Assembly: GCF_053078305.1 (NCBI RefSeq)
Contig: NZ_CP166879.1
Reading direction: 5' to 3' (one strand)
Length of the DNA stretch: 64,000 nt
Numbering within the stretch: the first letter of the stretch is position 1; the number at the start of each line of letters is the position of its first letter. Made by a program: the position numbers and the translations under genes. This document shows positions 2,996 through 56,213 of this stretch, one piece after another. The notes beneath the pieces were generated by a model. It was not told where the DNA came from and ran no database searches. It saw only the letters and a program-made list of their open reading frames with translations.

Positions 2996-3008
2996 GCGCA
3001 ACGCAATT
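2983..3008. promoter_or_regulatory. lac operator O3 (auxiliary operator at 3' end of lacI)
   Basis: ggcagtgagcgcaacgcaattaa overlapping the lacI stop, as in K-12. Confidence 0.7.
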
Positions 3009-3010
3009 AA

Positions 3011-3028
3011 TGTGAGTCAGCTCACTCA
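3011..3028 (+). promoter_or_regulatory. CRP (CAP) binding site of lac promoter
   Basis: tgtgagtcagctcactca; K-12 has tgtgagttagctcactca (one substitution). Confidence 0.85.
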
Positions 3029-3043
3029 TTAGGCACCCCAGGC

Positions 3044-3073
3044 TTTACACTCTATGCGTCCGGCTCGTATGTT
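3044..3073 (+). promoter_or_regulatory. lacP promoter (-35 tttaca at 3044-3049, -10 tatgtt at 3068-3073)
   Basis: Matches the K-12 lac promoter hexamers; spacer carries a few substitutions. Confidence 0.85.
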
Positions 3074-3079
3074 GTGTGA

Positions 3080-6192
<3,113 letters not shown>

Positions 6193-6198
6193 TAATAA

Positions 6199-7497
<1,299 letters not shown>

Positions 7498-52503: not shown

Positions 52504-53569
52504 CTCAAGAACCGATCAGATTGAGAGTTACCGTTCCAGGTATGGGGACAGAATCGTTATATAAAACATAGGGGTAACTCTCATGCTTCATAGTGACAAC
52601 CTCGCCAGCAAATTCTAAGCGGACTCGTTCAATCTGGCTGATGAAGGTGCTATGAATGCACTGATAAACCGCAGGTGAAATGCCACTCAGCTTAAGAATT
52701 ACGCCGCTAATGTTCCTTGCTATGGTTACCTGTTCATTCCCGCTCACGGTTAGCATGTACGAAAAGGGTTCTTGTAACGAGTACAAAAATAAGTCAGACC
52801 AAAACCACATGGAGCTTTAAACACGGTTCGTATAATTTATTAGCAGCGATTTATTTTTACTCTTCTTTAATTAATCATCATGCTTAAATATTTTTTAGCA
52901 CAAGATTATCGCTTCGCTAACATTTTATTTTACATTCATCATCAATTGATAATAAAAAATTGTTAATAATTTATTGCAAAAAACAAAAAGTGTTGGAATA
53001 CTCTCCATCAAATGAATACATAATAAACAAATTGAGATATACAAAAAGTAAAAACCATTTAAATGAATATTTTTAATTTATGAGCAGAACCCATTAACAA
53101 TGATTTACTAACCACCAGAAAAGTAAAGAACACCTTGCAATAATATGTATTTATAAATTCATATCATTGATATTAAACCAATCTTACTTTCTACCCTCCA
53201 ACTTTATGCATCAAAAAAAACAAAAGTAAAATCAATTAGATACACAACAAGGCAATCTCACAGGAAATGATGTTAAATATCTCAAAACTAATAAAAAATT
53301 ACTAAAATATTAGACGTAACACACATCCCACACGACCTGTCACTCATAGTTTTAATATTTATTTTTTCACATCATAGTAGATAAAAATACGCATTAAAAA
53401 TGACTTGTAGAAAAGCTGCACAATAAATAGTTCATATTTAGTCTGTTGCGTAGAACTACTATTCAAAAAATCTTATTAATGAGATAATGAGATTACATCG
53501 ATAACGTTCTGATGGCAGGCATACTTATCTGGGTGTGCCTCTCTTTTTTACAACTGTACACGGTGGCGT

Positions 53570-54133
53570 ATGACGAGAAAATATCTCACACAGGATGAAG
53601 TCTACAGGCTGATGGATGCAGCCCAGAGCATGTCCTTTCCTGAAAGAAATCGCTGTCTAATTATGATGGCTTTCATTCACGGTTTTAGGGCCAGTGAACT
53701 TCTTGATTTACGTTTATCCGATATTGATGCATCAGGAAAACAACTTAATATTCGGCGTATTAAAAATGGTTTCTCGACGACACATCCTCTTCTTCCTGAT
53801 GAATATAATTTGATCAAGTTGTGGCTTAAGCAGAGGAAGTTAATTGAAAACGGAGTTGAAGGAGACTGGCTTTTTCTCTCCCGGAAACGCCGCCCTATCA
53901 GCAGACAACATTTTTTTTCTATCATTCGTGAGGCTGGAAAACGTGCAGGATTAGCTGTAAAAGCACATCCTCATATGTTACGTCATGCCTGTGGTTTTGC
54001 TCTGGCTGACAATGGTGTCGATACCCGACTACTCCAGGATTATCTGGGTCATCGAAATATCCAGCATACTGTCAGATACACAGCCAGTAATGCTGCTCGA
54101 TTTAAAGGGGTGTGGAAAAAAAAACCTCGTTAA
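53570..54133 (+). CDS. FimB/FimE-family tyrosine site-specific recombinase
   Basis: 187 aa; strong similarity to remembered FimB/FimE blocks (FIHGFRASE, FSTTHPLL, HPHMLRHACGFALADNGVDTRLLQDYLGHRNIQHTVRYTASNAARF); preceded by ~760 bp of AT-rich ORF-free DNA. Possibly ipuA-like. Confidence 0.88.
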   Translation: MTRKYLTQDEVYRLMDAAQSMSFPERNRCLIMMAFIHGFRASELLDLRLSDIDASGKQLNIRRIKNGFSTTHPLLPDEYNLIKLWLKQRKLIENGVEGDWLFLSRKRRPISRQHFFSIIREAGKRAGLAVKAHPHMLRHACGFALADNGVDTRLLQDYLGHRNIQHTVRYTASNAARFKGVWKKKPR

Positions 54134-54145
54134 AACAGTACCTTC

Positions 54146-54423
54146 TGATTCAAAATGTCAGATTCCTACGTTTTCCTCAATTCTTCCATAAAAAAACAGC
54201 CCATTCAATTAAATAAAACACATAACATGTTGATATTTCTCGCTAAAGTAAAATAACCCCATGATTTGAAATGATTAACCACCAAGGTCATACCAGTGAT
54301 TAACTTTCGCTCATATTGTTAAATAACACAAAATTAAAAACAATAAAAATCAAACAAATTAGATTTATATTCCAAGAAAATTAAATATTCAGGCTATTAA
54401 ACCAAACCTGACATTTTGAATCA
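54146..54423. promoter_or_regulatory. Candidate invertible DNA switch (fimS-like) bounded by 16-bp perfect inverted repeats
   Basis: TGATTCAAAATGTCAG at 54146-54161 and its exact reverse complement CTGACATTTTGAATCA at 54408-54423, flanking 246 bp of AT-rich DNA between the recombinase and the LuxR-type regulator. Confidence 0.65.
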
Positions 54424-54462
54424 AAATGTCAGGTTTTGTAGCAATGGCGTGGACGAGTCTGA

Positions 54463-55257
54463 ATGAAGAAGCCTCTGGTTATTATCAGTGCCTGTCAGTT
54501 CACCAGGCTGGCACTGGAGTCTCTCATCCCAGCGGACAGGTATATCGTGCGGGTGTACAGCAACGTCACTACAGAGGTTGAATTCGTTTTAAAAACCTCC
54601 TGTGGCTACCTGTTGGCTGATATCCCTTCGCTTCCTTCGGGGGAGTTAGTTCTTCTGGCTTGTCTTGTCCGCTTGCGGAGTGATGCCGGGCAATGGCAGG
54701 TCTGCCTGACCGGTGACTCCGACTGGTCCGATAATGCTCCTGCTGCAAGTCTGTATAACGGCTTCCCACATATCGGCACCATGCTGACAGCGAGTCGTTA
54801 TCAGAATCAAATTATCCGCTGGTTACTACGTCCTTTACCCGGCGATATGAGTGATTTCTGGCTCCTGACTGCACGGGAGTTAAGCGTGCTTAAGATTCTG
54901 ATGCAGGGCATGAGTTTCAGTGAGATTGCCCGTTATGAACAACGCAGTTCAAAGACCCTGCATGCGATTGCCACACGGGCTTTAATGAAACTTGGACTGG
55001 GAACACTGAGCGATTTCAGGCTGCTCTATACGGGATGCGGTGACAGCAGAGTGAAACGGAATATACGGCTACATGCAAAATATATCGGACAACATTCCGC
55101 TCATCGACTCACTCAGTATGTGCAGAACATGGTATCCGGAATCCTTTATCCAGAGAAAGTTGCCGTTGGTGAATCAATAAATTCTGACGCCATTTCCGGA
55201 AAAGTACTTTCCGGACAAAGAAAAAATATATCTAAAAAAAGACCAGGATTGTTATGA
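54463..55257 (+). CDS. LuxR-type HTH transcriptional regulator
   Basis: 264 aa; HTH LTARELSVLKILMQGMSFSEIARYEQRSSKTLHAIATRALMKLG; starts 40 bp after the right inverted repeat. Possibly ipuR-like. Confidence 0.8.
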   Translation: MKKPLVIISACQFTRLALESLIPADRYIVRVYSNVTTEVEFVLKTSCGYLLADIPSLPSGELVLLACLVRLRSDAGQWQVCLTGDSDWSDNAPAASLYNGFPHIGTMLTASRYQNQIIRWLLRPLPGDMSDFWLLTARELSVLKILMQGMSFSEIARYEQRSSKTLHAIATRALMKLGLGTLSDFRLLYTGCGDSRVKRNIRLHAKYIGQHSAHRLTQYVQNMVSGILYPEKVAVGESINSDAISGKVLSGQRKNISKKRPGLL

Positions 55258-55410
55258 CACAGCAGCGTTGTTACTACCACCCACTGCGGCGCATACGGAC
55301 TCGCTACAGTGTAGGAGCCAAAATATTTCTACTGTTCTGGGCTGCAGGATTGGGAGGCACGCTGTACAGCCTGTACAGCGTGCTGGCGTACTGACATCTG
55401 TGAGGGAAGG

Positions 55411-56172
55411 ATGCGTTTCGTTCTTTTCTGTCCCTCAGGAATTGTACCAGCGCAGTTCGCAGCTCTATCAACCGGTTCTGTCGGCAATGTTACCTGCATC
55501 AGAACAGAAGAGGAGTTACGCAATAAATTGCGGCACAGGCCACAGAATGTCGTGATATCGGCAGGGCGACCTGCCGAATGCGCTGAAATGTGGTTCCGAT
55601 TTTATCGGGATCACTCATTCGTGGTGGTGTTGTGCGTCGCGCCCTTTTTTCTGCCACCGGATGTGAGTATTTCTGGCGTTCTCAAAAACCTGAGGTTACT
55701 GAAACCAGGAATGTCAGTAGAGCATGTCATCAGTATTGCAAATACCTCTGGTGGGTTTTCAGGGCTGAAACATGCAGAAATTTTGCCAGTTATGGACAGT
55801 TACTCTGTCTTTATGAAAGAGGTGAATAACCGCACAAAGACAATCGTCATGTCAGAACGCTTCCCGGAAAAGCAAAAGAAGGTGTTGTCGTTGCTTCTTG
55901 CCGGACACAGCTGGGAATACAGTGCGCAGTTTCTCAAAACGGGGATAAGACAGATATGGCTTGCCGAGCAGTCGCTAAAAAAGCGTTGGGGAATACCGGA
56001 CAGCATGTCATTGCGGGAAGCCCTGCTGCTGAGCAGCAATAAATTTCACGGTGATGGAAATGCATTGGAAAAAACGAATGCCATGACATTGCGTGAAAAC
56101 GGAAATACCAACAGGTATTCCGTGGTGGTAAATGCAGGGACGCAGGTTTTATCTCTGCATAAATATAAATAA
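55411..56172 (+). CDS. Second, divergent LuxR-like regulator
   Basis: 253 aa; degenerate LuxR-type HTH near the C-terminus (EKQKKVLSLLLAGHSWEYSAQFLKTGIRQIWLAEQSLKKRWGIP); no intact response-regulator phosphoacceptor signature recognised. Confidence 0.6.
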   Translation: MRFVLFCPSGIVPAQFAALSTGSVGNVTCIRTEEELRNKLRHRPQNVVISAGRPAECAEMWFRFYRDHSFVVVLCVAPFFLPPDVSISGVLKNLRLLKPGMSVEHVISIANTSGGFSGLKHAEILPVMDSYSVFMKEVNNRTKTIVMSERFPEKQKKVLSLLLAGHSWEYSAQFLKTGIRQIWLAEQSLKKRWGIPDSMSLREALLLSSNKFHGDGNALEKTNAMTLRENGNTNRYSVVVNAGTQVLSLHKYK

Positions 56173-56213
56173 GTGGGAAATTGAAATTAGTTACCAGAAT
56201 GGAGAATTTCTTC

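Follow-up and report, generated by a model that had tools for sequence, protein, structure and literature searches.

A Palindromic Site at the hyxS Promoter Switch of Escherichia coli and Its Probable Use in Inversion and Excision

Introduction

The invertible element hyxS lies beside fimX on the Escherichia coli pathogenicity island PAI-X (PMC3789825), is bounded by 16-bp inverted repeats, and controls hyxR (PMC6083910; PMC6458436; PMC8777976). A promoter region is inverted at hyxS (PMC3789825, PMC8777976), FimX is the sole inverter of the element (PMC6083910), and an inversion signal appears on FimX overexpression (PMC6458436). The first account of hyxS is credited, in PMC6083910 and PMC6458436, to Bateman and Seed 2012. 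The regulator hyxR has been linked to tolerance of nitrosative stress, macrophage survival, the chain length of the O antigen, and a transient resistance to phage.

A related switch, ipuS, is invertible by FimX as well, and its half-sites have been described as intermediate between those of fimS and hyxS (PMC6083910). Half-sites for FimB and FimE flank and overlap each repeat (PMC6458436), which leads to the expectation of a second, outer half-site at hyxS. How the Fim recombinases recognise dissimilar repeats has been stated as an open question (PMC6458436). The hyxS literature covered here, exclusive of Bateman and Seed 2012 and the 2013 paper of Bateman et al., makes no mention of a palindromic full site, a single-base asymmetry, or a deletion state. 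The element itself is already known, as the published hyxS; its recurrent excision appears to be unreported.

Here we analyse a perfect palindrome in a stretch of 64,000 nucleotides (the window; contig NZ_CP166879.1 of assembly GCF_053078305.1). We conclude, with a probability of roughly 85%, that this palindrome constitutes, in full, the right-hand site at which hyxS recombines, used by IpbA/FimX in inversion and probably also in a 271-bp excision.

Results

The Palindrome Is Part of hyxS on PAI-X

The window is E. coli PAI-X, with betA, ipbA (fimX), hyxR, hyxA, and hyxB, and the palindrome is part of hyxS, the already published FimX-inverted promoter switch of this island. The open reading frames around it encode betB, betA, a 187-aa tyrosine recombinase, a 264-aa LuxR-type protein, a 253-aa protein, and a 776-aa autotransporter. 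When 1.3 kb spanning the palindrome served as a query, 1898 of 5426 complete E. coli genomes matched at 96–99% identity; in matching genomes, RefSeq annotates the recombinase as a tyrosine-type DNA invertase named IpbA, with HbiF and FimX as its other names, and its neighbour as HyxR, a transcriptional regulator of the LuxR family, after which come hyxA and hyxB. IpbA scored 251.6 bits against the NCBIfam model NF007370, "tyrosine-type DNA invertase" (cut-off 221). Published hyxS and the locus in the window share the same genes, the 16-bp inverted repeats, and the occurrence of both orientations in nature. The initial annotation of this DNA missed that identity, whereas its suggestion of paired recombinase half-sites has held up, and its interpretation is therefore supported in part. 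In APEC O18 (locus positions 921-1532), where the switch is inverted, ipbA is annotated as 612 nt rather than 564 nt, and an indel near the 3' end seems to lengthen the reading frame towards the switch.

The palindrome occupies 33 bp at 54404-54436 and reads AAACCTGACATTTTGA-A-TCAAAATGTCAGGTTT, with perfect 16-bp arms mirrored about the A at 54420, just as initially noted. Its symmetry reaches 19 bp if one mismatch (position 17) is tolerated; O157:H7 has perfect 19-bp arms, owing to a C>A change at the base corresponding to 54403. An extra direct half-site, TCAAAATGTCAG at 54421-54432, had also been reported and was recovered as a copy of the left repeat at 54150-54161, in the same direction and at a spacing of 271 bp. 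Two further descriptions needed refinement: the right inverted repeat does lie in the palindrome, but the true 16-bp repeat crosses the palindrome centre, and the T-run said to follow the palindrome is present (TTTT at 54434-54437), but three of its T residues are inside it.

At the local composition, about 6e-5 palindromes with arms of at least 16 bp are expected per 64 kb. The longest arm among 500 dinucleotide shuffles of 53000-54460 was 11, and whole-window shuffles (n = 30) gave longest arms of 8–12, with one of 15. Based on this expectation and the shuffles, chance is rejected as the source of the palindrome. A 65-nt probe over the palindrome in the window orientation matched 1783 genomes, with perfect agreement in 1330. 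Three variant classes with one to three mismatches to the probe were sampled among these genomes; in them, all SNPs fall outside the 33 bp, and the 32 nt flanking the palindrome within the probe hold at least three polymorphic sites. A repeated or mobile element was also considered and rejected: the palindrome occurs once per genome, only at the hyxS locus or in an IS-flanked second copy.

In O157:H7 strain 644-PT8 (locus positions 744-2850), the island is decaying, with ipbA frameshifted, an internal stop in hyxR, and hyxA cut beside IS1203; the palindrome there is still intact, with the perfect 19-bp arms.

The window holds other palindromes. A second, longer perfect one, TAAATATCCTGGCATTACTAATGCCAGGATATTTA at 59462-59496, has 17-bp arms about one base and lies between the convergent open reading frames 58695-59363 (+) and 59604-60446 (-); it may terminate transcription bidirectionally or serve as a binding site. 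The hyxR–hyxA spacer contains a 27-bp perfect palindrome, GCACGCTGTACAG-C-CTGTACAGCGTGC (55357-55383), with no T-run after it, and in one genome (L009, 2605-2745) a small open reading frame annotated as a hypothetical protein occupies the equivalent position. A G+C-rich palindrome at 58550-58578, CCTGCAGGCAGCAGTATGCTGCCTGCAGG, 39 bp past the hyxB stop codon, is probably the operon terminator.

The Two Sites Share One Plan

The features of the switch are collected in Table 1. The left site as a whole (54133-54165) is a degenerate copy of the entire palindrome, with a nearly identical inner arm. Dyad symmetry of the arms, compared at the sequence level, extends to 10 of 10 positions in the right site and to 4 of 10 in the left. 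The left and right cores are reverse complements of one another, and each differs from its own reverse complement only at the central base. When the two sites are aligned antiparallel, they match perfectly over 16 bp (positions -3 to +12); in the parallel alignment, 3 matching bp are followed by a central mismatch and another 12 matching bp. The antiparallel match predicts inversion, and the parallel match predicts deletion of exactly 271 bp. The inner arms of both sites are identical across the 9 bp adjoining the core, which fits the bidirectional inversion reported for hyxS.

Table 1. Coordinates of hyxS and neighbouring features in the window
Feature	Positions	Strand	Sequence	Basis or remark
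ipbA (= fimX = hbiF), Fim-family tyrosine DNA invertase, 187 aa	53570..54133	+		ORF, RefSeq annotation, NCBIfam
Left site (IRL), outer arm, degenerate	54133..54145		AAACAGTACCTTC	Begins at last base of ipbA stop codon; 8/13 positions as in palindrome arm
Left core	54146..54152		TGATTCA	Centre T at 54149; putative crossover (overlap) region
Left inverted repeat, 16 bp	54146..54161		TGATTCAAAATGTCAG	Length as in PMC6083910
Segment of 271 bp absent from 89 "switch-less" genomes	54150..54420			Ends ambiguous within repeats
Left site, inner arm	54153..54165		AAATGTCAGATTC	
hyxS invertible interior, 246 bp, AT-rich	54162..54407			Reverse-complemented, flanks unchanged, in 16 complete genomes
Best sigma-70-like promoter candidate in hyxS	54180..54208	-	TTGAAT, 17-nt spacer, TG-n-AAGAAT	Relaxed custom scan; prediction
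Right site (IRR), inner arm	54404..54416		AAACCTGACATTT	
Right inverted repeat, 16 bp	54408..54423		CTGACATTTTGAATCA	
Right core	54417..54423		TGAATCA	Centre A at 54420, the palindrome's only asymmetric base pair
Right site, outer arm	54424..54436		AAATGTCAGGTTT	"Additional half-site" of the initial annotation; right partner in natural 271-bp deletions (deletion junctions)
hyxR, LuxR-type regulator, expression under switch control	54463..55257	+		ORF, annotation, literature

Three Natural States of hyxS

A survey of 5426 complete E. coli genomes found 1783 with hyxS in the window orientation and 16 with it inverted; in 89, a precise deletion has removed 271 bp, and these amount to about 5% of carriers (89 of about 1890 carrier genomes). 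The inverted state was sought with a synthetic sequence in which 54162-54407 was reverse-complemented, and the 16 genomes match this probe end to end, with junctions that read exactly as predicted. Ten inverted alleles occupy the usual locus, and the other six a second copy flanked by IS elements; one inverted and one non-inverted strain have identical flanks.

The second hyxRAB copy (~96% identical) was seen in six genomes, mostly dog isolates, for example MEI005 (locus positions 3001-6601). It lies between IS66 and IS21 elements, retains only the 3' end of the recombinase gene, and carries the switch inverted, with a G>A change in the outer arm that leaves a palindrome with 15-bp arms. Four of these six genomes show a single probe match, whereas H52 and H54 show three; in the four, the switch may be locked if an intact ipbA is absent.

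The deletion alleles first appeared as matches of 81% coverage, with 58 bp between ipbA and hyxR. Their junction, ...ACAGTACCTTCTGA(T or A)TCAAAATGTCAGGTTTTGTAGC..., is the left flank fused to the outer arm of the palindrome, the excision junction itself reading CCTTCTGA(A/T)TCAAAATGTCAGGTTTTGTAGC. Junction-specific probes brought the number of deletion genomes to 89, 18 of which match the centre-T probe perfectly and 69 the centre-A probe.

Deletions Have Arisen Repeatedly

Sixteen deletion loci were compared over ~1800 nt of flanks and resolved into seven flank backgrounds, mutually 5–26 substitutions apart, which include ST131-type and ST73-type backgrounds and one common to many poultry isolates. 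For three of the seven, an intact strain exists with zero flank differences over these ~1800 nt. Intact ST131 strain 2019_APHA pairs with deleted KE54, AVS0223, SA186, and AR_0089; intact Nissle 1917 pairs with deleted clone D i14 and THO-006; and intact GPEC1209 pairs with deleted GPEC1354, 2009C-3133, D10, 13P477T, and KKo009, in a background that also includes the inverted GPEC1035. Intact relatives with identical flanks indicate that the deletions are recent losses rather than an ancestral empty site.

The base at the centre of the junction is informative about the exchange. Among sampled intact loci, the left centre is invariably T and the right centre A. A centre-A junction implies exchange inside the 3 bp TGA to the left of the centre; for a centre-T junction, a crossover anywhere in the 12-bp block suffices. 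Centre-A junctions occur on at least four of the seven backgrounds and centre-T junctions on at least five, and two backgrounds hold both types with otherwise identical flanks. The presence of both junction types is the pattern expected of heteroduplex over a centrally placed overlap. A query with A at the left centre gave no perfect match among 1757 intact genomes, a count in which a minor-haplotype allele could hide among one-mismatch matches; an SNP-first origin of the centre-A deletions, from a pre-existing A at the left centre, was rejected on this result.

T at the palindrome centre was found in a single intact genome, that of strain 1002W03 (locus positions 1501-1565). Its left and right cores form 16-bp direct repeats, an arrangement predicted to favour excision over inversion. 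The cryptic-clade Escherichia sp. MOD1-EC7003 (locus positions 1100-1200) has a switch-less ipbA–hyxR junction with centre A and further substitutions (TCATG, GTTTAG) in the remaining arm; either the deletion is old or the site has always lacked a switch. A scan of species-representative genomes with IpbA returned only one relative, from a cryptic-clade Escherichia with a switch-less junction.

An alternative origin of the 89 deletion alleles is replication slippage between direct repeats, independent of the recombinase and aided by the hairpin, in which case the alleles would be uninformative on FimX. Palindromes stimulate replication slippage, which counts in its favour, and direct repeats are available, their length being 12 bp when the switch is oriented as in the window and 16 bp when it is inverted. 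Neither a circle junction nor a tandem duplication was found in the assembled genomes, which is compatible with slippage, although they are expected under neither model. Slippage within a perfect block of 12–16 bp, however, predicts centre-T junctions almost exclusively, whereas centre A is the majority (69 of 89); to give centre A, slippage would have to switch within the 3-bp TGA or realign with a mismatch. The two backgrounds with both junction types also argue against it, as does ipbA, which is annotated as intact in 16 of 16 sampled deletion strains. A weaker point, as O157 is one clone, is that neither the O157-type SNP nor an O157 name occurs among the deletion and inversion alleles listed, ipbA being a pseudogene in O157. 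Slippage is thus a serious but less probable explanation, and we favour, by inference, FimX as the maker of the deletions.

An RNA Hairpin and a Candidate Promoter

The promoter candidate listed in Table 1 points towards ipbA as the switch lies in the window and would point towards hyxR only once inverted, in keeping with a window orientation that is the common and probably the OFF state; a stricter consensus scan found no promoter inside hyxS. If the candidate promoter is used, the ON transcript would carry the palindrome hairpin close to its 5' end.

A terminator conferring orientation-dependent control had been suggested for the palindrome. An RNA hairpin is indeed predicted, but it forms in both orientations and cannot alone give such control. 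More broadly, the palindrome could act in RNA, where it might serve in intrinsic termination or attenuation, or else form a 5' stem-loop that stabilises the hyxR leader; it would block ipbA read-through or tune hyxS promoter output, and such a role could coexist with that of a recombination site. The folding energies are consistent with this idea: both strands form a stable hairpin (-20.8 and -22.2 kcal/mol, z -5.3 and -6.8), which is kept after inversion (-17.6 kcal/mol) and has a version with a 13-bp stem followed by UUUUGU, while a paralogous E. coli switch described below folds strongly too (-20.8 kcal/mol). The symmetry is also longer than recombinase arms would need, and the best promoter candidate, once inverted, would initiate ~10–20 nt upstream of the hairpin.

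Against it, a terminator scan made no call at the palindrome, and the U-tract is weak, the tail past the full stem being UGUAG and UUUU-G-U following only the 13-bp stem. G-C pairs make up only 5 of 16, and Rfam returned no family matches for 53000-56500. No hairpin is predicted in the related Salmonella switch (-4.2 and -4.4 kcal/mol, z about 0), and the T-run is absent from both that switch and the E. coli paralogue. Switch transcripts that reach hyxR must cross the hairpin, and a strong terminator would therefore defeat the ON state. An RNA-level function is therefore an unlikely reading of the palindrome; a terminator or leader-hairpin role is possible as secondary to the recombination site.

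Mirrored Arms Recur beside Related Recombinases

Relatives were collected by a protein search and contig look-ups, and the layout of a core between mirrored arms was found, at the sequence level, in five other related switches. An E. coli paralogue combines a recombinase 81% identical to IpbA with a HyxR-like protein (52% identical) and an autotransporter. Its left site reads CATTC-TGGTTCA-AAATGTCAGAT and its right site ATCTGACATTT-TGAACCA-TTATGTCAGAT; in the latter, the outer nine bases of both arms are perfectly mirrored, and the core is asymmetric at three positions. This module adjoins acetolactate genes (loci L024-L027, positions 3567-3900) and has its own switch, whose interior in L024 falls 41 bp short of that in L025-L027.

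The Salmonella T1-antigen switch (PMC11294581), ~270 bp long, adjoins the recombinase STM0716, 72% identical to IpbA. Its cores equal those of hyxS, TGATTCA on the left and TGAATCA on the right, but its arms carry TTAAC instead of CTGAC. In the right site, TTAACTTTT-TGAATCA-TATTGTTAA, both arms (TTAAC...GTTAA) have changed symmetrically relative to hyxS, although the symmetry is imperfect (6–7 of 10 arm positions). The left outer arm shares with hyxS the odd GTAC-NTTC type, and this type (GTAC/GTTC-NTTC) is kept in the paralogue as well. In a Hafnia switch and two fimbrial switches, both sites have a 7-bp core, (T/A)G(A/G)N(T/C)C(A/T), and GWCAWWW arms. The more symmetric site is the one farther from the recombinase gene in five of the six systems. 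Compared across these sequences, the mirrored-arm layout follows the recombinase.

These comparisons bear on two further explanations. The palindrome could be a neutral by-product of history, such as an inverted duplication at the origin of the switch, with only the inner 16-bp repeat mattering now. Symmetry of 16–19 bp, which exceeds any plausible binding arm, speaks for such an origin, but the 33 bp are unchanged in every variant class sampled beside a polymorphic flank, relatives diverged in sequence still have mirrored outer arms, and the outer arm serves as a natural crossover partner, so that this explanation is very doubtful.

The proposal that the palindrome is an operator through which HyxR, as a LuxR/GerE-type HTH dimer, autoregulates hyxR is scarcely credible: the dyad is of suitable size and lies 27-59 bp upstream of the hyxR start codon, but the same layout is kept beside the orthologous recombinase at the Salmonella T1 locus, where the first gene past the switch (111 aa) is not HyxR-like (E = 65 against HyxR) and is followed farther on by glycosyltransferase genes, fimbrial switches that lack a LuxR gene have this layout too, the arms vary with the recombinase rather than the regulator, the left site adjoining ipbA bears the same motif, and no HyxR binding motif is known.

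Discussion

The palindrome reveals no new system; what it offers is a view of how a known switch may be used. Its interpretation as paired recombinase half-sites draws on direct observations, namely the anatomy of the sites, the three natural states, the inversion and deletion junctions that fall within the site, and the mirrored arms conserved in related switches. Based on the symmetry, a simple model would place one IpbA/FimX monomer on each of the two 13-bp arms (consensus ...CTGACATTT, mirrored), which are putative binding sites, and the symmetry together with the junction types would place strand cutting and exchange in the 7 bp TGAATCA between them. The left site, just past the ipbA stop codon, follows the same plan with the core TGATTCA, although there the inner arm alone is a good copy.

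Antiparallel pairing of the cores would yield the 16-bp match and invert the 246-bp interior, which corresponds to the published ON/OFF switch of hyxR. With the right site symmetric except for its central base pair, the left site could also pair in reverse, over 3 + 12 bp with one mismatch. Exchange in this parallel alignment would release a 271-bp circle, whose junction would read AAACCTGACATTTTGA(A/T)TCAAAATGTCAGATTCC, and leave one hybrid site, an irreversible, "locked" allele. Staggered cuts bracketing the centre would produce an A/A or T/T mismatch in the product, which would segregate into both alleles.

In its full form, the proposal is that hyxS is a three-state element in which the direction of the right site is set by one central base pair; FimX would flip the element or permanently excise it, repeatedly in natural E. 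coli lineages, and each excision heteroduplex would give rise to centre-A and centre-T daughter lineages. The odds on this fuller account appear even to us. If it is true, a change of A to T at 54420 would turn hyxS from an invertible into a self-deleting element. The perfect symmetry of the palindrome (16–19 bp) goes beyond the putative 13-bp arms and beyond what relatives keep, and something else may also act on it, such as an RNA or DNA hairpin or homogenisation by recombination.

Two consequences follow for work on this island. About 5% of carriers are in a third, irreversible state that typing schemes and expression studies limited to ON and OFF would miss. The target of FimX can be given a candidate definition as a 7-bp core, TGAWTCA, flanked by GWCAWWW-type arms.

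Among described switches, ipuS of CFT073 has the same module of recombinase (IpuA/IpuB), switch, LuxR-type regulator (ipuR), and autotransporter (upaE) (PMC6083910). It differs from hyxS in its 7-bp repeats, one of which lies inside the ipuA coding sequence, so that inversion alters the C-terminus of the recombinase (PMC6083910). The type 1 fimbrial switch fimS (FimB/FimE) resembles hyxS in combining a Fim-family tyrosine invertase with a promoter-bearing segment of ~300 bp. Its K-12 repeat core, TTGGGGCCAA, is a near-palindrome, asymmetric only at the central GG/CC, and is adjoined by GWCAWWW-type arms, for example GAGTCAAAA-TGG; the K-12 sequence also contains the hyxS-like motifs TCAAAATG and AAATGT, in a register that is tentative. 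In contrast to hyxS, fimS has a 9-bp repeat with two asymmetric central bases, and its sites are not perfect palindromes. The directional bias of FimE at fimS comes from unlike inner and outer arms, whereas the hyxS inner arms do not differ over their 9 core-proximal bp. IHF and Lrp are needed at fimS; hyxS inversion was reportedly found by Bateman and Seed to be IHF-independent.

A parallel to the proposed excision lies outside the Fim family. In loxP/Cre, FRT/Flp, and XerCD/dif, mirrored arms of 13 bp (11 bp in dif) surround an overlap of 6–8 bp. The direction of a lox or FRT site is set only by the asymmetry of its overlap, and symmetric-spacer variants give inversion and excision. Cre, Flp, and XerCD are unrelated in sequence to FimX beyond the tyrosine-recombinase fold. 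By analogy, the near-symmetric crossover core of hyxS would let an invertase also excise, which would make the element a natural counterpart of symmetric-spacer lox and FRT sites; in hyxS the near-symmetry is natural, and excision is inferred from population data.
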